Positions 47-61,369 of a stretch of DNA of 64,000 nt are shown here, piece after piece. Where the stretch lies: positions 204,383 to 268,382 of the forward strand of contig JAYRIM010000028.1 in the NCBI GenBank assembly GCA_041906785.1, read 5' to 3'. Position numbers and translations under genes: made by a program. The first letter of the stretch is position 1, and every line of letters begins with the position of its first letter. The DNA is from Candidatus Levyibacteriota bacterium (GTDB taxonomy: Bacteria > Patescibacteriota > Microgenomatia > Levybacterales > UBA12049). The notes beneath the pieces are model-generated. The model searched no databases, was not told the origin of the DNA, and was given only the letters and a program-made list of their open reading frames with translations.

Positions 47-1153
47 TTATTTCTTCACTTTTTCCCAGGGAAATTCGGTGCGGCCGAAGTGGCCATAAGC
101 AGCAGTAGGTAAATAAATCGGTTGTCGTAATTGTAATGTTTCAAGGATTCCTTCTACTGAAGTATCTAGTAATGAAGACATGAAGTCCTTCAGTGCTTTT
201 TTACTCACTTTTTCAGTCCCAAATGTTTCAATTTCTTGCATTATTGGTTTCTTCGCACCTATGTAATAAGCTAAATATACTTCTGCTTTATCAGCTAATC
301 CTTGAGCGACAATATTCTTCGCTAAAAATCGTGCGGCATAGGCTCCTGACCTGTCAACTTTCGTTGGATCTTTTCCGCTAAATGCTCCTCCACCTACTCT
401 TGCATATCCACCATATGTATCTACTACGATTTTTCTTCCTGTAAGACCAGAATCTGATGCAGGTCCACCGTTATGCCAAACTCCTGTACCATTTACAATA
501 AGATCTTTCTTGGGATAGGAAAATCCAAACTTTTTCAGCACAGGATCGACAACTTGTTTGTATACATCTTCTTTTACCTGGTCAAGTGTTACTGATGCTT
601 GATGGGGGACAGCAATGACCACATATTTAACTTCTACAGGTTTTCCGTCTCTATATTCTATTGTAACTTGTGTTTTTCCGTCCGGCTTTAAATAAGAAAG
701 AACTTTTTTTTCTCTGACCTCGTCTATCCTTTTTGCCAATGCATGGGCTATTGTTATAGGTAGGGGCATAAAAGAAGAGGATTCATTTGTGGCAAATCCG
801 AACATCATGCCTTGATCCCCAGCGCCTTTTTTCTTTACTCCCACTGCTATTTCAGGTGACTGCGCATGGATTTTAATGTCTATAGGTGACGTATCAGAGA
901 ATCCATATTCTTCATGGATGTATCCTAACCTTTTTATTTGTTTACGTGCTATTTTTTCAAAATCGATTTCTGCTTTCGTATGTATTTCTCCTACAAGGAA
1001 AAGACTATTTGCTGCAGCCATTGTTTCGATTGCTGCTCTTCCATACGGATCTTGACGAAGAACTTCATCTACGATTGCGTCACTTATTTGATCACAGATT
1101 TTATCTGGATGACCAGCGCAAACAGATTCAGAAGTAAATAATGATATTTTCAT
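47..1153 (-). CDS. metK: S-adenosylmethionine synthetase (methionine adenosyltransferase)
   Basis: Full-length MetK-like translation (MKISLFTSESVCAGHPDKICDQISD...; C-terminal GGGAFSGKDPTKVDRSGAYAAR signature). The track ORF runs to 1177 via TTG, but the MetK-like N-terminus begins at the ATG at 1151-1153. The extension would read through the leader hairpin. Confidence 0.93.
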   Translation of the reverse strand: MKISLFTSESVCAGHPDKICDQISDAIVDEVLRQDPYGRAAIETMAAANSLFLVGEIHTKAEIDFEKIARKQIKRLGYIHEEYGFSDTSPIDIKIHAQSPEIAVGVKKKGAGDQGMMFGFATNESSSFMPLPITIAHALAKRIDEVREKKVLSYLKPDGKTQVTIEYRDGKPVEVKYVVIAVPHQASVTLDQVKEDVYKQVVDPVLKKFGFSYPKKDLIVNGTGVWHNGGPASDSGLTGRKIVVDTYGGYARVGGGAFSGKDPTKVDRSGAYAARFLAKNIVAQGLADKAEVYLAYYIGAKKPIMQEIETFGTEKVSKKALKDFMSSLLDTSVEGILETLQLRQPIYLPTAAYGHFGRTEFPWEKVKK

Positions 1154-2617: not shown

Positions 2618-3606
2618 AGGAGTTCATTATATTCTCTTAATAATGCATTTGAGATAGTCTGGAAACTGAATTGTTTTGTTAATTCTACGCTTTTTTCTTT
2701 TCTTTTTTTAAAGTATGTTTTATCAGTATAAAGTTTATCGACAAGTTTCGTAAAATCACTGATTGAATTACTAGCGAGATACATATCTCCGTATAATGAC
2801 TTGTACTCTTCATTATTCCGTAAAACAAGCGGTAATCCGCACGCTGCAGCTTCAAGGATAACCATGGAAGCGATTTCCTGATATGAAGGGAAAAGAAAAA
2901 TATCAGCCATGTTATAGAATTGGATCACTTTTTCGTACGAAACAATTCCAGGAAGAATAACATTTTTTGGTCTATTTTCATAGAGGTTTTTCTGTTTTTC
3001 TGTCTGAACATTTAACATTTTAATATCATGACCCCCTAACCAAAGAAAAGTTATATGTGGGAGATTTTGTGCAATCTCTAGGAAATCATAAAATCCTTTT
3101 CGTGGAATGAATTTTCCAACTCCAAGGGCGATAAATGCATTTTCTGAAATTCCAAAGTTCTTTTTCCCTTCGTTTCGTTTTAAACCATCAAAATGAAAAA
3201 CTTTCGTGTTTATTGGGTTAGGAATAACTGCTATTCGCTTTACTCCTATTTGTTTTAACTCTTTTTTTACATGCTCATTGAGCGCTACCACTAGATCTGC
3301 TCGTTTATACGCTATATTAAGATATTTATTTATAGCAGGGGCCACAATATTTGCCCCTTTCCAGCTATTTAGAAAGCTTTCTACGGTTATGTGAGTGCTC
3401 AGGACGGTATTTTTATTAGAAAAGAGTCTATACATGCCAAGCGGTCCGAGAGTGTGGATATGGACGATGTCTGCTTTTTTAGAGGAGTTAATGAGAACTG
3501 TTACTCCACGTTCCTTAAGCATCTCTATATGGGTAAGAAAAGCAGTATGTATTCCACCCCATTTCTCAGGTGCTGAAACAGATTCAGAAATAACATTTAC
3601 GATCAT
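2614..3606 (-). CDS. GT4 (group 1) glycosyltransferase
   Basis: 330 aa, MVILEAAACGLPLV motif. 4-nt overlap with the upstream GT4, suggesting a co-transcribed pair. Confidence 0.8.
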   Translation of the reverse strand: MIVNVISESVSAPEKWGGIHTAFLTHIEMLKERGVTVLINSSKKADIVHIHTLGPLGMYRLFSNKNTVLSTHITVESFLNSWKGANIVAPAINKYLNIAYKRADLVVALNEHVKKELKQIGVKRIAVIPNPINTKVFHFDGLKRNEGKKNFGISENAFIALGVGKFIPRKGFYDFLEIAQNLPHITFLWLGGHDIKMLNVQTEKQKNLYENRPKNVILPGIVSYEKVIQFYNMADIFLFPSYQEIASMVILEAAACGLPLVLRNNEEYKSLYGDMYLASNSISDFTKLVDKLYTDKTYFKKRKEKSVELTKQFSFQTISNALLREYNELL

Positions 3607-4015: not shown

Positions 4016-4849
4016 ATAAGGCGATTTAGCAGACAAGGTACATAAATGCTAAGGGGTTGGGTAAGGTAGATATTATTGCTATATCAAGCAAATCTGCTAC
4101 TTTAATAAGCCCTTTTGCTAATGATGAGTTATAATTCCGTAAAAATCAATTACCTCTAAAGATTATAGTGAAATTATATCAAAAAGTCAATGATACCAGT
4201 CTAAAAAAATTATACAAATGAAAAAAAGAACAGCTAGAGAAGAAAGATTCTCGGAGAGTCTGACAATTGAATTGTTACCATGTTGTATGTCTATCGATCG
4301 TTCAATTTCTTTTCCCTATATACATCATGGGTTGCTTTACACTGATGTCAGTTATAATAGATCCTTCATACGCTAAAAAGGAAAACTGTGAGTAAGTGAA
4401 GTAGGCTAGTTAAAAGTAATACATATATGTCTATCAGTTGAAAAGGCATTAATACAAAAGTGAAAGTACGAGAAACGGAGAATAAAAAACAGTTAAGTAA
4501 AAGTAGTATAAACCCTATAGTAGAATATCATGCAAGTTGACTTTGATGATTAAAAGCTAGTTATCTGTAATTAAGTGCAATTCTATAAAAAAATCATTGA
4601 ATATTTCTTCTTTTCAACTATATTCTAACTGCATGGGTGGAGGAAGATGAAAGGTATATAAAGCAAAAAAAGGGGTAATTTATAAAGATCATAAAATATG
4701 CTCAATACATATATAGAACAATATTTATGATCATTTAGCCTTGTATGAGTAAAATTATTTATCAATATTGCGCATTCAAGCTTTAGTAGTATTTCAAGTA
4801 TCTTCTAGCATAGATTTGTCAATTAGATTAAAATAGGACGAGTAAAAAA

Positions 4850-55622: not shown

Positions 55623-57389
55623 TTATTTTTTTAACCAATTAACTACTTCATTATACGATTTTGCATTTAAAATGTTAAGCTTTGTTGCCCAACCTCTTCG
55701 TGCGACTGAGACACCATATTCCATAAGATTCATTTGATCTACGGCATGGCTATCCGTATTAATAACGAGCATGACATTTTTATCTACAGCTTTCCTAACA
55801 ATTTCATCTGTCAGATCAAGACGTGAAGGATACGCATTAATTTCAAGTGCTTTATTTTGTTCTTTACAGAACGTAAGTAATGTATTCCAATCAAGTTCAT
55901 ATCCAGACCGCTGATTTATGAGTCGTCCAGAAGGATGTGTGAGTACTTTTGCCTTTGGATGAGAAAGTCCTTTTAATACCCGTTTTGTCATCTTCTCACG
56001 ATCCATTGAAAAAACACTATGGATTGATACAAGTGTAAAATCTAATGTATTTAAAGCCGATTCCGGTAAAGCCAGAGAACCGTCTGGAAGTATATCTGTT
56101 TCCATAGAGTAAAAAATGTGAACCTTATCTCTGACCATTTTTTTTACTCGATCAATTTCTTTGTTTCTTGCTTCTATAAGAGACAGTATGTCTTTTTCTG
56201 TATGTTTCGAATTGCTGGGGTTATGCTCGGAAAATCCGATATACGAATAGCCAAGTTCTAAAGCTTTTTTTGTCATTTCTTCAATTGAGTTTTTTCCTAA
56301 ATCATGGCTTGGTTCTATTGGAAAGCTTGAATGTAAGTGAAAATCACCTTTCATATCTTTTTTTTCTAAAAGAATTGGTAAAGTATGATTTGCAGCTTTC
56401 TCGATTTCTCCTGTATCTTCTCGGATTTCTGGTGGAATCAAATCGAGTCCCAGATAGTTATAGAAATCCTTTTCATTCGTAAACGTTTCTAACTTCTCAG
56501 TTTTAAGATCTTTAATTCCTCTTTCGGAAAGGGATAGTCCTTTTTTTAGGGCAAGTTCTCGCAAGTGAACATTGTGGTTTTTACTTCCGGTAAAGTGTTG
56601 TAAAAGAGATCCGAATTTATCTGGTGCCATGACCATTAAATCAATATGTTTTCCTCCAGATACGATAAGGCCTGCTGAAACATCCCCTTCTTCGATAATC
56701 TGCTCTTTATATGGATACGAAATAAAATGCTTAATGACTTCTTGTGCTTTATCAGTTGATACAGCTAAATCAACATCTCCTATCGTATCTCGTCTTCTAC
56801 GTAAGCTACCTAAAGGATAGATTTCTTTTACAGCTTTTGATTGCTTCATATAGCTAATTATTTTTTCAGCAAGTTCGGAGGCATAAGGAAGAGTCATTCG
56901 CACAGATTTCGTTAATCCGTTTTTATATGATGTTAGTGCTTGGATAATATCTTCTTGAGATTTCTGACCGAATCCTTCAAGTGAAGCAATAACCCCAGAT
57001 TCTGCCACTTTTTTGAGGTCATCAATGACAGTTTCGGGATCATGTAACTTAAAATGACTTACAAGCTTGAATGATTTTTTGGGTCCAAAGGTAGGTACAT
57101 CTAAAAGAGGAAAAACAGCAGGTGGAATACCTTCCATTATAGTTTCAAAATGTTTAACTTTACCTGTTTTTATAAGCTCAACTAAATGTTGCTTTATAGA
57201 GGGACCAATCCCAGGAATATTTTCAATAGAGTTTTCCTGAATAAGATTTTTTATTTCAGCTGTGCTCGCATCTAAAGCATCCGCAGCTTTTTGATAGGCG
57301 ATTATCTGGAATCTATATTTTTTTTCGTCTTTAATCGCATATGTGGCTGCGACATTTCTAAGAAGTTTGGCAATTTCTTTATTTGACAT
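55623..57389 (-). CDS. polX: DNA polymerase X family protein with C-terminal PHP domain
   Basis: 588 aa. N-terminal helix-hairpin-helix / pol beta-like nucleotidyltransferase (GDVD...). C-terminal PHP histidine cluster (HLHSSFP...HNPSNSKH...). Confidence 0.8.
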   Translation of the reverse strand: MSNKEIAKLLRNVAATYAIKDEKKYRFQIIAYQKAADALDASTAEIKNLIQENSIENIPGIGPSIKQHLVELIKTGKVKHFETIMEGIPPAVFPLLDVPTFGPKKSFKLVSHFKLHDPETVIDDLKKVAESGVIASLEGFGQKSQEDIIQALTSYKNGLTKSVRMTLPYASELAEKIISYMKQSKAVKEIYPLGSLRRRRDTIGDVDLAVSTDKAQEVIKHFISYPYKEQIIEEGDVSAGLIVSGGKHIDLMVMAPDKFGSLLQHFTGSKNHNVHLRELALKKGLSLSERGIKDLKTEKLETFTNEKDFYNYLGLDLIPPEIREDTGEIEKAANHTLPILLEKKDMKGDFHLHSSFPIEPSHDLGKNSIEEMTKKALELGYSYIGFSEHNPSNSKHTEKDILSLIEARNKEIDRVKKMVRDKVHIFYSMETDILPDGSLALPESALNTLDFTLVSIHSVFSMDREKMTKRVLKGLSHPKAKVLTHPSGRLINQRSGYELDWNTLLTFCKEQNKALEINAYPSRLDLTDEIVRKAVDKNVMLVINTDSHAVDQMNLMEYGVSVARRGWATKLNILNAKSYNEVVNWLKK

Positions 57390-57451
57390 CGCTTCAAGTT
57401 TAGCAAAGGATTGCCTTCACTGCAATTATTTGTTACAATTGCATCGAATCT

Positions 57452-57529
57452 GGGGTGGTAGCTCAGTTGGTTTAGAGCGCCTCCCTGTCACGGAGGAGGT
57501 CGCGGGTTCGAGTCCCGTCCATCCCGCCC
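57452..57529 (+). tRNA. tRNA-Asp (anticodon GTC)
   Basis: GGGGTGG-TA-GCTC-AGTTGGTTTA-GAGC-G-CCTCC-CTGTCAC-GGAGG-...-GCGGG-TTCGAGT-CCCGT-CCATCCC-G-CCA. Discriminator G73. Near-identical arms to E. coli tRNA-Asp. CCA encoded. Confidence 0.9.
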
Positions 57530-57580
57530 AGAGAGTAATAATTATTACGAATTTCTTACACTGTTTGTAATAATCTCCTC

Positions 57581-57609
57581 TTGACATCATAATTTTTCGT
57601 CTTATAATA
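57581..57609 (+). promoter_or_regulatory. consensus sigma70-type promoter (TTGACA-N17-TATAAT)
   Basis: TTGACA at 57581-57586, 17-nt spacer, TATAAT at 57604-57609, about 28 nt upstream of the LysM gene ATG. Confidence 0.7.
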
Positions 57610-57636
57610 GTCGCAACTGTCCAGATAATACAAATT

Positions 57637-58506
57637 ATGGCAACAAAAAGGGCAGTTAAAAAAACTGAAAAAACAATAAAAACTCCTGTGGAAGAACAAA
57701 AAACAACTTCATCATGGACCAGTTATTTAAATTTTGGTGAATCATATAGTAGCTTGATTCTCGGTATTGTCGTCGTGATAGTTACTACAATTCTTCTGGT
57801 TTTTCTGGTTAAAGACAGAAATATTACTCAACAAACAAATATAAAAAAGGATGTATCTTCTACAAATAATACTATTGACAATAAGACACTTGCAAAGATT
57901 AGTTTAACTACTGCTCCTACACAAACACCAGCCGTTTCTCTAAATCCTTCTCCAACAAAAAAACCTACATCTATTCCAACTCCGACAGTACAACCAAAAA
58001 AAATAGCATCTGCTGTGAAACTTTCTCCTACTATTACGAAAAAGCCGACTCTTAAACCGACCGCTACGGTACAACCTACAGCAATTGCTGTAAAGCTCTC
58101 TCCTACGATTACCCCACAGAAAGTTACAAATGGAAAAACGTACACAGTAGTCTCAGGAGACAATCTCTGGAAAATTGCTGAGGCTCAATACGGCAGCGGA
58201 TATAATTGGGTAGATATCGCAAAAGCCAATAATTTAGAAAATCCGAGTGTCATTTCAGCAGGGACGAAATTAACAATTCCGTCCGTGACTCCTAAGATTA
58301 AAACCGTCGCCTCAGCGCAAGATGTTTCATACGGTTCGAAGATTACAGGAACGACTTACACTGTGCAGAAAGGTGATCATCTATGGGGTATAGCAGTACG
58401 TGCATATGGGGATGGCTACAAATGGACAGAAATCGCAGCTGTTAATAATATCAGTACTCCAAACATTATTTATTCCGGACAAGTAATTAAACTTCCTCGG
58501 TCGTAA
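57637..58506 (+). CDS. membrane-anchored protein with Pro/Thr-rich repeat linker and two C-terminal LysM domains
   Basis: TM at residues about 35-57. Repeats KLSPTITKKPTLKPTATVQPTA / KLSPTITPQ. LysM motifs YTVVSGDNLWKIAEAQYG...GTKLTIP and YTVQKGDHLWGIAVRAYG...GQVIKLP. Confidence 0.8.
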   Translation: MATKRAVKKTEKTIKTPVEEQKTTSSWTSYLNFGESYSSLILGIVVVIVTTILLVFLVKDRNITQQTNIKKDVSSTNNTIDNKTLAKISLTTAPTQTPAVSLNPSPTKKPTSIPTPTVQPKKIASAVKLSPTITKKPTLKPTATVQPTAIAVKLSPTITPQKVTNGKTYTVVSGDNLWKIAEAQYGSGYNWVDIAKANNLENPSVISAGTKLTIPSVTPKIKTVASAQDVSYGSKITGTTYTVQKGDHLWGIAVRAYGDGYKWTEIAAVNNISTPNIIYSGQVIKLPRS

Positions 58507-58642
58507 CTTTCCCTGACTTTTTCTATTAATTTTCGATTTTATTTCGAGATCTATTAGCGAAGAACTTCTATTACTAAAAGAAAACTTAAGCAACAAATTA
58601 AACAAATTTTTTATACGGACAAAAAAAATATTCAAACTCTTT

Positions 58643-58673
58643 TTGTTGCGTGCTGTGGTAAAATTGATATAAT
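58643..58673 (+). promoter_or_regulatory. promoter with extended -10 (TTGTTG ... TGaTATAAT)
   Basis: TATAAT at 58668-58673 preceded by TGa. TTGTTG at 58643-58648 (19-nt spacer). Placed to start transcription near 58680 at GCGGTGGTAGTAT. Confidence 0.45.
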
Positions 58674-58681
58674 TATGAAAT

Positions 58682-58850
58682 TGCGGTGGTAGTATCAGTC
58701 TAAAGCGAACTATGTTCGCATTATGACTGACCAGCCAATATGCGAAGCTTATGGCTGGCAGTGGTAGTATGCTACCATCCTCAGCCAATAACTATGGAAT
58801 TTGGCTGACCCGCTTGAATGCAAAGCTTTCAGACGGCAAGGCTAAAGAAT
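58682..58850 (+). ncRNA. highly structured leader/ncRNA upstream of the GIY-YIG ORF, carrying two partial copies of an internal tRNA-Gly segment
   Basis: Nested hairpins TCAGTC[GCGAAC-TAT-GTTCGC]GACTGA (58695-58730), CCAGCCA...TGGCTGG (58731-58758) and CAGCCAA...TTGGCTG (58782-58807). GGTAGTAT at 58688-58695. GGTAGTATGCTACC at 58763-58776 is identical to tRNA-Gly positions 59133-59146. Confidence 0.4.
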
Positions 58851-59126
58851 ATGTATTTTACATATGTGCTGAGATGTATTGATAATAAGAGAGGTCGAGT
58901 TGAGTTTTATACTGGCTCAAGTGAAACATTACCAAACCGTATTGAGGATCATAAATCAATGAGAGTAAAAACGACTAAGTCTTTTGATAGTATAGAACTT
59001 GTCTATTACGAAGCTTGTCTGAATAAAACCGATGCTCTTCATAGAGAGAATCAATTAAAAACAGGATTTGGAAGAGGATATATTAAAAGAAGAATTGAGA
59101 ATTATTTAAAAAATTTGCGGGGTTAG
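58818..59126 (+). CDS. GIY-YIG nuclease domain protein (small, about 90-102 aa)
   Basis: YFTYVLRCIDNKRGRVEFYTGSSETLPNRIEDH = GIY-YIG motif. The likely true start is the ATG at 58851 (MYFTYVL...). The last codons overlap the 5-prime end of tRNA-Gly. Confidence 0.75.
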   Translation: MQSFQTARLKNMYFTYVLRCIDNKRGRVEFYTGSSETLPNRIEDHKSMRVKTTKSFDSIELVYYEACLNKTDALHRENQLKTGFGRGYIKRRIENYLKNLRG

Positions 59127-59188
59127 TACACCGGTAGTATGCTACCTTCCCAAGGTAGAGAAGCGAGTTCAATTCTCGTACCCCGCTC
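59117..59188 (+). tRNA. tRNA-Gly (anticodon CCC)
   Basis: GCGGGGT-TA-GTAC-ACCGGTA-GTAT-G-CTACC-TTCCCAA-GGTAG-AGAA-GCGAG-TTCAATT-CTCGT-ACCCCGC-T. Discriminator U73 as expected for Gly. CCA not encoded. Confidence 0.8.
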
Positions 59189-59233
59189 AAATTGAAAGTA
59201 TCTACATCTTATTATCCCTGATAAACTAGAATT

Positions 59234-59671
59234 ATGAGCGAGTATGATCCTAATTATGTTCAAAAAAAATCATTTGCTATTGTTGGTCAAAAAGCGATTG
59301 TTTTAAACGCTGAAAACAAACTTCTACTATTACAAAGATCTGAAAAGTCAGGTAATGGTGGAAAATGGTCTGTGCCTGGAGGTGCACTTGAATTTAGTGA
59401 AGAACCTCTTGCAGGAATTGAGAGAGAAATAGAGGAAGAAACACAATTAAAAGTTTCAAGTATCCAGCCCTATCATGTAAAGTCTTATATAAATCAGGAT
59501 GGTGATTTTGTGGTAATTATTGGGTACTTGTGTAAAGCTGAAACTGATCAAGTTAAACTTAATTGGGAACATGATAACTTTCAATGGTTAACAAAAGATG
59601 AAGCTTTAAAACATGAGTTGACAACAGATGGACTAACCTTCATTGAGAATTTTCCTCTTGACAAAGAATAG
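59234..59671 (+). CDS. Nudix hydrolase
   Basis: Nudix box GGALEFSEEPLAGIEREIEEETQL; 145 aa. Confidence 0.8.
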   Translation: MSEYDPNYVQKKSFAIVGQKAIVLNAENKLLLLQRSEKSGNGGKWSVPGGALEFSEEPLAGIEREIEEETQLKVSSIQPYHVKSYINQDGDFVVIIGYLCKAETDQVKLNWEHDNFQWLTKDEALKHELTTDGLTFIENFPLDKE

Positions 59672-59692
59672 CTTGATTTGGTAACTTAAATC

Positions 59693-61369
59693 GTGCCCTC
59701 ATTGAAATCTTCGAATAAAAAAAGAACGAAATATATTTTTGTCTCCGGAGGAGTCATTTCAGGTATCGGAAAAGGTTTAACAGCTTCATCAATTGCATTA
59801 CTTTTAAAATCCGCCGGGTATAAAGTCGCCCCTATCAAGTTTGAAAATTATCTTAATTTAGATGCAGGCACAATTAATCCTATTGAACATGGAGATCCGT
59901 TTCTCTGTGAAGATGGCGCAGAAACAGATATGGACATTGGTTCATATGAGAAATTCCTTGGTGAAGACATGGGGCGTGATAACTTCGTAACAATAGGAAA
60001 AATTTATTTCACTGTTATGGAGAGAGAACGAAGATTTGAATATAAAGGTGAGGATGTCGAAGCGATACCTCACGTTACAGATGAAATCATTTCCCGAATT
60101 ACAGGATTAGCTGAGAAAAAAGGTGCGGATATTGTTCTTATAGAACTTGGAGGGACTGCTGGGGAATACCAGAATATTTTATATTATGAAGCTTCACGTA
60201 TTATGACATTAAAAAACCCCGGAGATGTGGTACATGTTCATGTAAGTTATATGCCGACACCTGGGCATTTGGGAGAACCAAAAACGAAACCTACGCAATT
60301 ATCTGTCCGAACACTAAATTCAATGGGTATACAACCAGACTTCATTATTGCCCGTTCCGATAAGTATATAGATCAGCGTCGACGGGATCGTTTTGCTCTT
60401 TTCTGTAACATGCATCCTGAGGATATTATTTCTAATCCAGATCTCGAACATCCCTATGAAATACCTTTTGTGCTTCAGGATCAAGATTTAGCACGAAAGA
60501 TTATGAAGAAATTATCACTTCCTATAAAAACTTCTGATTTGTCAGAGTGGAAAAAATTGGTTGAAAGAATTAAAGCGAAGAAGTCCAAAGAGATTGAAAT
60601 TGCGATAGTAGGTAAATACTTTGGAACCGGTGACTACCAGCTTCGAGATTCGTATGCTGCATTATTCGATGCTATTGATCATGCCGCTTGGAAGCTTGGA
60701 GTAGCTGTAAAGACACGGTGGGTTGATGCTGAGAAAGTTGAGAAACAAGGAACAAGTGTTATAGGTAAACCAAATGGACTAATCGTTCCCATCGGTTGGG
60801 GAGAACGTGGAGCAGAAGGAATGATTGCTGCAGCTTCGTATGCCAGAAAAGAAAAAATTCCGTATTTAGGACTTTGTTATGGTATGCAGCTCGCTACAAT
60901 CGGTTTCGCTCGAGATGTGATGGGATGGAAAGATGCTGATACTGAAGAGAATAACCCAAAAACGAAACACGCTGTAATTCATTTTATTCCTGCGCAAAAA
61001 GAAATGGTTGCCAGAAGAGCATATGGAGGGACGATGCGATTGGGTGGCTGGGAAGCATTTGTTAAGAAAGGGACACGCGCGTATAGTTTATATGAAAAAT
61101 ATGGAGGCCTTCTTGATAAAAAGACAGGTTTAACCAGTGAACGACATCGTCATCGATATGAATTTAATAGTGAATATGACGCAGATTTCGAAAAAGCAGG
61201 TCTTATTATTGCTGCTCGTTCAAAAGTAGAGAATCTCGTAGAAATAATCGAATTACCTGAAACAGAACACCCCTTTTTTCTTGGCACACAAGGTCATCCA
61301 GAATATAAAAGTAAGCCTCTCCAACCGCATCCGATATTTATAGGTTTTCTTGAAGCGTCTAGTAGATAA
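59693..61369 (+). CDS. pyrG: CTP synthase
   Basis: KYIFVSGGVISGIGKG N-terminal P-loop-like motif. C-terminal type-1 glutamine amidotransferase (GLCYGMQL, HRHRYEFN). GTG start in the track; the exact start is uncertain. Confidence 0.95.
   Translation: MPSLKSSNKKRTKYIFVSGGVISGIGKGLTASSIALLLKSAGYKVAPIKFENYLNLDAGTINPIEHGDPFLCEDGAETDMDIGSYEKFLGEDMGRDNFVTIGKIYFTVMERERRFEYKGEDVEAIPHVTDEIISRITGLAEKKGADIVLIELGGTAGEYQNILYYEASRIMTLKNPGDVVHVHVSYMPTPGHLGEPKTKPTQLSVRTLNSMGIQPDFIIARSDKYIDQRRRDRFALFCNMHPEDIISNPDLEHPYEIPFVLQDQDLARKIMKKLSLPIKTSDLSEWKKLVERIKAKKSKEIEIAIVGKYFGTGDYQLRDSYAALFDAIDHAAWKLGVAVKTRWVDAEKVEKQGTSVIGKPNGLIVPIGWGERGAEGMIAAASYARKEKIPYLGLCYGMQLATIGFARDVMGWKDADTEENNPKTKHAVIHFIPAQKEMVARRAYGGTMRLGGWEAFVKKGTRAYSLYEKYGGLLDKKTGLTSERHRHRYEFNSEYDADFEKAGLIIAARSKVENLVEIIELPETEHPFFLGTQGHPEYKSKPLQPHPIFIGFLEASSR

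Follow-up and report, generated by a model that had tools for sequence, protein, structure and literature searches.

The window analysed here, a 64,000-nucleotide (64-kb) stretch of contig JAYRIM010000028.1 from a Candidatus Levyibacteriota bacterium, contains a gene for a very small GIY-YIG nuclease whose last codons lie inside a tRNA-Gly(CCC) gene. With a probability of roughly 0.6, we regard this locus as a selfish, homing-like cassette that resides within a tRNA transcription unit, splits a tRNA gene and supplies a replacement for it. As read from the sequence, the locus is arranged, in order, as a tRNA promoter, a displaced tRNA-Gly 5' part interrupted by palindromic modules, the nuclease open reading frame (ORF) and the complete tRNA-Gly fused to it. 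Comparison of related loci shows that one syntenic site is occupied by the cassette in some genomes and not in others, that its entry splits the resident tRNA at a fixed position, that the entering cassette brings a different complete tRNA while the resident halves stay as flanking fossils, and that the tRNA delivered by one cassette can later be invaded in its turn.

An empty-site comparison with relatives, proposed in the first-pass annotation of this DNA and made with syntenic loci reached via homologues of the LysM neighbour, revealed two sites (L207 and L209) with the gene order PolX, tRNA-Asp, LysM, tRNA-Gly(CCC) and CTP synthase, and with neither the ORF nor the module. The same syntenic site is occupied in the window and in L042, L014 and L001, and the complete tRNA of the window is 95–96% identical to the element-free syntenic tRNA (alignments that include a few flanking nucleotides, nt). 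At three loci (L010, L015 and L024), an upstream tRNA 5' half pairs in the acceptor stem with a downstream, module-preceded 3' half; the halves are complementary in the anticodon stem too in L010 and L015, and at all three loci both are unlike the complete tRNA lying between them. Because the halves are complementary to each other and differ from the complete tRNA, they are read as a resident tRNA split by a unit consisting of module, ORF, new tRNA and module. In L001, the native allele (equal to the window tRNA) is left only as the leader, and the complete copy is a foreign tRNA-Gly; L208 carries the same foreign tRNA type as a complete gene, followed by a degenerate module end and the native 3' half. 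A nested invasion is seen at 2771–2893 of L001, where a decayed older nuclease ORF (ending in SKTFDKIELVY, a deletion, SRELFESMRG and the stop) has its stop codon in nt 8–10 of the now-split tRNA. The ORF is internally deleted in L153 and L157, with leader and tRNA kept, and arrays of module-plus-3'-half units are found in L027 and L016.

Presence or absence at one homologous site, together with replacement of the flanking markers (the foreign tRNA alleles of L001 and L208), is the pattern that marks homing-type elements. Nuclease and host relationships are, moreover, incongruent: L042, the closest host by LysM (68% identity), has a nuclease just 58% identical to that of the window, and hosts with 38–50% LysM identity carry nucleases that are 71–74% identical (in L001, about 50% versus 74%). 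L014 has the two-module leader and exactly the tRNA of the window, whose copy is thus read as old and left-side-only, with two modules; any downstream fossil that it may have had is gone. A free-standing homing cassette that had rearranged a tandem tRNA-Gly array was among the possibilities listed in the first-pass annotation; of these possibilities it comes nearest to the evidence, since the empty sites, split residents and nested invasion agree with its homing part, but the duplicated tRNA segments do not stem from a tandem array.

The leader, i.e., the segment between promoter and ORF, gives tRNA-Gly nt 1–39 once both modules are removed, with 34/39 identity to the downstream tRNA. The repetition of the 14-mer GGTAGTATGCTACC in leader and tRNA, which had drawn attention to the locus, proved to be real: this sequence occurs exactly twice in the 64 kb, at 58763 and 59133 (0.01 expected by chance), 0/100 shuffles gave two matches, and the longer match covers 17/18 nt. 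The duplicated segments, earlier ascribed to a tandem array, are instead read as one displaced tRNA-Gly 5' part, cut by palindromic modules at the 12/13 and 34/35 junctions (the slash marks the split between two tRNA nucleotides). The 34/35 split, the position used at most loci, falls between the second and third anticodon bases, and anticodon-loop modules are followed on their right in every case by CAAG(G) or CAAAC, in step with the tRNA type. Two leader units of about 75 nt with tRNA-like 5' starts had also been described; the sequence GCGGTGGTAGTAT at 58683 does resemble a tRNA 5' end, but GGCTGGC belongs to the first module, as its 3' arm, and the actual repeat is a double-hairpin module of 56–64 nt. 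The leader is not a new RNA gene. Its hairpin-rich character was correctly recognised, as it folds more stably than shuffled sequences (z = -3.8), and its G+C content is 47.8% compared with 33.6% for the window. The extended -10 motif noticed earlier, TGATATAAT, is present 9 nt ahead of the leader GCGG and probably acts as a promoter, although a generic -35/-10 scan did not flag it at 58665–58673. The pattern TGnTAnnWT occurs at most 45 nt upstream of the leader in 13/57 loci versus a 4% background, and a TGnTAnAAT-like motif also stands ahead of the element-free tRNA-Gly genes in L207, L208 and L209. Since the leader is located between a tRNA-type promoter and a tRNA, it is presumably transcribed.

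The same organisation recurs widely. A search for further copies of the ORF and the leader, suggested at the outset, yielded 80 loci encoding relatives of the ORF in species-representative genomes, nearly all of them metagenome-assembled genomes of Patescibacteria (Candidate Phyla Radiation, CPR), and a module lies directly 5' of the ORF in 75 of the 80. The ORF ends -45 to +35 nt from the tRNA 5' end in 69/75 scorable loci and overlaps the tRNA in 60/75, its stop codon coinciding with tRNA nt 8–10 in 41. Of the tRNAs at the cassettes, 46 are Gly(CCC), 9 Gly(TCC) and 3 Gly(GCC); further cassettes use tRNAs for Val, Ile, Thr, Asn, Ala and Glu. Interrupted fragment and complete tRNA always agree in tRNA type, and in 13 loci the upstream fragment is identical at 34/34 positions (nt 1–34). 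Modules sit in the tRNA fragment at 34/35, 12/13, 14/15, 17/18, 22/23 and once at 53/54, and the tRNA sequence past the module amounts to only 4–17 nt before the ORF. The single 53/54 case, at 3350–3411 of L016, places the module in the T-loop of a tRNA remnant and is the sole one beyond the D and anticodon arms. The layout of the cassette is also seen at tRNA-Thr(GGT), in a more distant member of the family. Two still more distant members (P0259 and P0273) adjoin neither tRNA nor module, and another (P0316), situated some 107 nt from tRNA-Gly(GCC), lacks a module, so the tRNA-fused, module-bearing layout is limited to the near clade. Seven loci have a second, more divergent small GIY-YIG ORF no more than about 2 kb away from the main one (see the table); small GIY-YIG genes thus cluster around tRNA genes. 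In L079 (3310–3400), a leader-type unit (tRNA 5' fragment, module and GAGCA) lies directly 3' of a normal cassette, between two tRNA genes and without an ORF after it.

The upstream regions of the 80 loci have in common a unit of approximately 60 nt composed of two adjacent hairpins, with the consensus TCCGCC-AAAAG...CATTT-n-GGCGGA for hairpin 1 and CCCGCC-nn-AATG...CTTT-n-GGCGGG for hairpin 2. In the alignment of 34 units from which a covariance model (R1) was built, compensatory changes were found at 16 of the 20 consensus pairs, and the model matched the window only twice, both times at the cassette locus. The module is dyad-symmetric: the hairpin 2 consensus is the reverse complement of hairpin 1, and both strands score about equally. 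RNA under selection normally tolerates G-U pairs far more than A-C mismatches; the paired positions of 77 plus-strand modules comprised 1489 Watson-Crick, 12 G-U, 9 A-C and 29 other combinations. Because the module is dyad-symmetric and covarying and lacks a G-U excess, these data suggest that it is a conserved hairpin- or cruciform-forming DNA. An RNA-specific structure signal was rejected, since G-U was not enriched over A-C and the covariance model could not separate the strands. A known RNA family was likewise ruled out by Rfam 15 E-value scans, which gave tRNAs alone both in the region 57300–59800, which includes the segment 58680–58850 for which such a scan had been recommended, and in four loci with canonical modules. 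The earlier suggestion of a tRNA-mimic regulatory RNA gained no specific support from hairpins of this symmetry and base-pair composition, which also occur away from tRNAs.

Modules are found 3' of the tRNA in 12/80 loci, and 8 of 19 module-bearing metagenome loci (one sequence sampled twice) are distant from any tRNA or GIY-YIG gene. Solo modules, some of them shortened, are located at L012 774–838, L121 1613–1670, L155 537–611, L158 1533–1592, L098 103–172 (the same sequence as L143 2017–2086), L150 1850–1896, L110 9962–10006 and L126 626–673. A separate hairpin of about 29 nt, CCCGCCACAACTTCGCAGATGTWGGCGGG, within or beside modules of L012 (~2680–2712), L073 (~2903–2935) and L007 (~2938–2970, reverse), looks like a hairpin-in-hairpin insertion. 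In silico deletion of the module restored a predicted tRNA at only 1/120 junctions, a chimeric remnant in L033; modules are therefore almost never located inside an otherwise complete tRNA gene.

Table 1 Features of the tRNA-Gly(CCC) locus in the window, and second GIY-YIG ORFs at related loci (locus coordinates)
Feature	Position	Strand	Basis
Extended -10 promoter-like motif TGATATAAT	58665..58673	+	Read in the sequence; 9 nt before leader GCGG (58683)
Displaced tRNA-Gly nt 1-12, GCGGTGGTAGTA; allele other than that of the functional tRNA	58683..58694	+	Flank analysis, allele table
Double-hairpin module A, at tRNA nt 12/13 (D arm)	58695..58758	.	Covariance model R1: 63.6 bits (+), 53.9 bits (-)
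Displaced tRNA-Gly nt 13-34, CAGTGGTAGTATGCTACCATCC; holds the repeated 14-mer	58759..58780	+	Flank analysis
Double-hairpin module B, at tRNA nt 34/35 (anticodon loop)	58781..58836	.	R1: 59.6 bits (+), 43.3 bits (-)
CAAGG, tRNA nt 35-39, resumed after module B, ahead of ORF	58837..58841	+	Flank analysis
GIY-YIG nuclease gene, 91 residues, SLX1/UPF0213 lineage	58851..59126	+	Pfam PF01541; homologue starts
tRNA-Gly(CCC), complete, functional copy	59117..59188	+	ARAGORN; Rfam tRNA model 59.1 bits
Second GIY-YIG ORF, L011	3378-3611		
Second GIY-YIG ORF, L012	3757-3996		
Second GIY-YIG ORF, L020	5225-5341		
Second GIY-YIG ORF, L040	1943-2170		
Second GIY-YIG ORF, L047	3880-4134		
Second GIY-YIG ORF, L053	2436-2669		
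Second GIY-YIG ORF, L071	3529-3744		

The solo modules, the leaders with two modules at different tRNA positions (window, L005 and L014) and the further 29-nt hairpin nested within modules (L007, L012 and L073) could all be accommodated if the module itself were the primary mobile entity, a REP/MITE-like palindrome entering the hairpin loops of tRNA genes, with the GIY-YIG gene as its mobilising enzyme or frequent neighbour and the tRNA pieces as debris in duplicated tRNA genes. A gene flanked by palindromic doublets recalls RAYT/REPIN, and this architectural resemblance also speaks for the proposal. We nevertheless consider it unlikely: the window holds just two modules, both at the cassette, module deletion regains a predicted tRNA at the one junction in 120, the module adjoins the ORF in 75/80 loci, and module mobility alone leaves the fixed ORF–tRNA junction unexplained. 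Precise insertion in tRNA loops, non-canonical positions included, and the occurrence of a module on each of the 5' and 3' halves point in another direction, that of an RNA-level element, in which the module would be a protein-dependent intron or a split-tRNA joining signal removed by the GIY-YIG protein acting as an RNA endonuclease; the pseudo-two-fold symmetry of the module is reminiscent of the archaeal bulge-helix-bulge (BHB) motif. This is extremely improbable, given that tRNA is restored only at that single chimeric remnant, that a complete uninterrupted tRNA is always present, that the 3' half is missing in most loci, including the window, and that no intron or ribozyme family was matched in Rfam. 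The tRNA intron was rejected as a class on the deletion result and the Rfam scans, and the initial judgement that the tRNA is uninterrupted and that the element is not an intron holds.

An RNA-guided nuclease had also been envisaged at first, and by analogy with the omega RNAs of TnpB/IscB the leader could be a guide (the tRNA 5' fragment) joined to a scaffold (the module) and aimed at element-free tRNA-Gly. A guide-like sequence followed by a conserved hairpin scaffold does lie beside the nuclease gene at the element edge, and a 91-residue protein needs its specificity from somewhere. However, the supposed guide is often 34/34 identical to the tRNA of the element itself, which would lead to self-targeting; its length varies from 12 to 37 nt, and it is absent in L021, L041, L045 and L061 despite the presence of module and ORF. 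The scaffold is strand-symmetric without an RNA-type wobble signal, and the module also occurs 3' of tRNAs with no ORF following. We know of no RNA-guided nuclease nearly as small as 91 residues, and the bare domain is far below the size of the known ones. The idea thus received no specific support and is very unlikely; membership in the TnpB/IscB type (RuvC with or without HNH, 350–500 residues, omega RNA) was rejected for a 91-residue GIY-YIG protein without any match to an Rfam omega RNA or HEARO model.

The ORF was said at first to encode 100 residues and to end in tRNA-Gly(CCC). Its end is as described: the last 10 nt of the ORF are tRNA nt 1–10, and the TAG stop at 59124–59126 is tRNA nt 8–10. 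The size has to be revised; the ORF was first listed as 58818–59126 (a 102-residue reading), the ATG at 58818 falls within a hairpin, and all 328 homologues begin with MY(F/Y)TYVL, so the ATG at 58851 is the true start and the protein has 91 residues. It matches the Pfam GIY-YIG family (PF01541) with 49.1 bits against a cut-off of 22.6 over residues 12–85 of the 102-residue reading, and 29 sequences share without exception Y5, Y20, G22, R30, H34, E54 and E66, the catalytic Tyr, Tyr, Arg, His and Glu among them. The AlphaFold (AF2) model has a pLDDT (predicted local distance difference test) score of 83.4 and the order strand-strand-helix-strand-helix-helix. In the sequence search of the PDB, the UPF0213 protein BH0048 (1zg2, E 4e-4) was the sole match under E 0.001, the next, weak matches being Slx1 7cq2 (0.089) and UPF0213 1ywl (0.099). 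Foldseek ranked 1zg2 first, then At-HIGLE 7wme (TM 0.65, root-mean-square deviation 2.3 Å), Slx1 7cq3 and UvrC; the fold matches thus include the SLX1-lineage Holliday-junction resolvase At-HIGLE, the E-values for the SLX1/UPF0213 lineage being all weak. On sequence and model, the protein appears closest to the SLX1/UPF0213 structure-specific nucleases, as a minimal domain without extensions. Among the named NCBIfam subfamilies, only the group I intron endonuclease TIGR01453 appeared, with 14 bits versus a cut-off of 56, and no PHROG (phage) family matched. A profile search against 1.84 billion cluster representatives (50% identity) gave 561 relatives at E ≤ 1e-10 and only about five at E < 1e-25, so the protein clade of the window itself is narrow; across CPR phyla, homologues are 60–87% identical. 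These ORFs have so far been annotated as "GIY-YIG nuclease family protein", "putative endonuclease" or "hypothetical protein". GIY-YIG domains of the SLX1 lineage and of ANKLE1 cut junctions and cruciforms (PMC9071465, PMC6902002, PMC10287932), and prokaryotic stand-alone SLX1-like proteins represent the minimal form of the fold, with unknown function (PMC1564403).

This degree of conservation, which implies purifying selection, and the retention of the cassette at a single conserved location (tRNA-Asp, LysM, tRNA-Gly) in many Microgenomates could also be expected of a domesticated, host-serving gene, i.e., of a tRNA-linked housekeeping or repair enzyme co-expressed with tRNA-Gly, whose leader would be a cis-regulatory RNA (a tRNA-derived decoy plus protein-binding hairpins) tuning translation of the ORF or maturation of the tRNA. 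The stable leader fold (z = -3.8) behind a tRNA-type promoter is in line with this, as is the overlap of stop codon and tRNA, which couples translation to RNase P processing, and a prokaryotic SLX1-like domain fused to the TrmH tRNA methyltransferase has been reported (PMC1564403). Domestication seems improbable, though, because relatives manage without the cassette, ORF-deleted derivatives persist, modules also occur 3' of tRNAs and far from them and are strand-symmetric without G-U excess, and the foreign tRNA alleles and nested decayed ORFs point to invasion.

If the locus is a selfish, homing-like cassette, its propagation could be envisaged as follows. The leader, ORF and tRNA would form one transcript from the tRNA promoter, and the fused complete tRNA-Gly would keep the host supplied; processing by RNase P at tRNA +1 would sever the ORF from its stop codon, which is part of the tRNA, and give a non-stop message. 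The nuclease would be structure-specific and cut hairpin, cruciform or four-way DNA of the module and/or the tRNA gene, and repair of the break by homologous recombination would copy the cassette in, with flanking tRNA sequence serving as universal homology arms. The cassette carries such arms of its own, since directly repeated copies of the tRNA 5' part flank it and the remainder of the tRNA comes after them. Later recombination between the direct tRNA repeats could delete fossils or the whole cassette, and may account for the missing downstream fossil of the window type, for the duplicated fossil units of L027 and for the empty sites, as clean losses. A bolder version, which we put forward tentatively and hold to be possible rather than probable, is that of a new class of mobile element, in which a bare 91-residue SLX1-like resolvase targets DNA shape, not sequence. 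The target shape would be either a four-way junction extruded by the tRNA gene or the double cruciform of the module; the gene would be broken in a loop, the element copied by recombination and a replacement tRNA brought along, and serial invasions would leave a fossil stack of tRNA halves and dead nuclease genes. Targeting of shape would explain the occupancy of Gly, Val, Ile, Thr, Asn, Ala and Glu tRNA genes.

Several observations weigh against the selfish cassette. Since no locus exceeds 75% DNA identity to the window cassette over its length, recent mobility of the window copy is not shown. In Microgenomates, the cassette occurs at one syntenic site and looks largely vertically inherited, and the empty sites could be losses instead of never-invaded alleles. 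At the inner edges of the modules, the short tRNA pieces agree with the incoming tRNA in L010 and L027 and with the resident one in L001 and L015, and none of the single insertion geometries considered ("y-module-x" target-site duplication, Campbell-type module-by-module recombination and double-strand-break repair) fits all loci. As the search of viral contigs for the module pattern gave no real module, no vector for the cassette is known. The 91-residue protein has no DNA-binding domain, and every mechanistic step past insertion itself, cleavage included, is one that we infer. Finally, the displaced fragment often does not differ from the complete tRNA; a nuclease reading intact tRNA sequence or structure would be expected to cut its own locus too, and an immunity mechanism is not evident.

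Among known systems, the closest by behaviour are the free-standing genes for GIY-YIG homing endonucleases, for example T4 segB, located in the T4 tRNA cluster, where it drives the inheritance of that region (PMC2330249). As with SegB, a GIY-YIG gene is placed among tRNA genes, gene conversion transmits it together with adjoining tRNA sequence, a fixed site may or may not contain it, and the function of the host gene is kept without an intron. Unlike Seg proteins and I-TevI, which have at least 200 residues and a C-terminal DNA-binding domain, the cassette protein is a 91-residue catalytic domain of the SLX1/UPF0213 branch and lacks their two-domain plan (GIY-YIG, linker, C-terminal DNA-binding domain); it is, furthermore, chromosomal in CPR bacteria and not phage-borne. 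To our knowledge, Seg genes have no palindromic module, split tRNA fragments or ORF–tRNA overlap. A search of IMG/VR viral contigs for the module pattern gave six chance matches and no real module, which, together with the lack of a PHROG match, led us to reject a phage-borne element. The minimal domain is shared with SLX1, At-HIGLE, ANKLE1 and UPF0213 (YhbQ-like) proteins, the nearest sequence and fold matches, and known members of this group cut Holliday junctions, cruciforms, flaps and stem-loops, a preference that fits the hairpin-rich DNA partner of the cassette. In contrast to the cassette nuclease, these enzymes act in repair and have neither a DNA element of their own nor a link to tRNAs, and eukaryotic SLX1 needs SLX4 and a RING domain.

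Integrase islands and prophages resemble the cassette in that they target tRNA genes, carry a partial tRNA copy, regenerate the functional gene and leave a partial copy at the other end. In contrast to them, the cassette has no integrase and a single 91-residue ORF as cargo, it regenerates the 5' side or the whole tRNA rather than the 3' end, and a hairpin module, instead of an attachment (att) core, marks its junctions, which are found in the D, anticodon or T loops. Neither a tyrosine or serine recombinase nor a tRNA 3' att repeat was found; the sole ORF between tRNA fragments is the GIY-YIG gene, the repeated tRNA part is nt 1–34/39, and the neighbours are LysM, NUDIX and CTP synthase genes, so membership in the integrase islands was rejected. 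RAYT/REPIN systems similarly combine a small enzyme gene with flanking hairpin-repeat doublets and have solo repeat copies elsewhere, but they use an HUH Y1 transposase and reach tens to hundreds of REPINs per genome; with a GIY-YIG fold, two modules in 64 kb and strict linkage to tRNA genes, the cassette was not assigned to them. Split tRNAs of Nanoarchaeum and group I introns of Patescibacteria also separate tRNA halves, with interruptions in the anticodon or D loop. Position 35/36 is used by some tRNA introns as well, and group I introns occur in Patescibacteria tRNAs (PMC13011429). The difference lies in the complete tRNA that is always present with the cassette, the halves being fossils without a group I core or BHB motif.

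Full-text literature searches did not find the arrangement described, the nearest papers being PMC2330249 and PMC13011429; the latter, a survey of Patescibacteria tRNA introns, does not mention GIY-YIG. The cassette looks like an undescribed selfish element invading tRNA genes across ultra-small (CPR) bacteria, and we rate it as belonging with selfish nuclease cassettes that spread by gene conversion. Its new features relative to Seg-type genes would be a minimal SLX1-type nuclease, a dyad-symmetric junction module, fusion of the ORF into the tRNA, and a spare tRNA. Selfish nuclease genes are known to reside in essential genes by way of introns and inteins; if the proposed interpretation is true, carrying a spare copy of the gene would be a third way. 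One UPF0213/SLX1-like clade would then be tied to a defined DNA partner and target (a tRNA gene), making its function testable, and the cassettes would explain the tRNA-gene fragments and odd tRNA-Gly loci in Patescibacteria annotations and would preserve, as a natural archive, instances in which lineages replaced one another's tRNA alleles. Tool builders, too, might then take an interest in so small a structure-guided nuclease and its compact module for DNA recognition.

Apart from the cassette, the surroundings in the window are made up of ordinary genes (PolX, tRNA-Asp, LysM protein, NUDIX and CTP synthase). The end coordinates of tRNA-Asp(GTC) disagree between ARAGORN (57451–57530, 80 nt) and the Rfam alignment (57452–57526). 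Between the LysM stop and the leader lies a spacer of 176 nt with 25% G+C (58507–58682) that has no counterpart in any fetched locus; in element-free relatives, the LysM-side spacer measures 56–60 nt (L208 and L209) or about 300 nt (L207). In L002, ARAGORN reports at 4120–4193, 1.7 kb downstream of the cassette, a tRNA with a four-base anticodon (cccc), to which it assigns no identity. About 2 kb upstream of the L035 cassette, at 933–987 (+), a type III hammerhead ribozyme (RF00008) is matched with 46.9 bits, just below the gathering score of 48.5.

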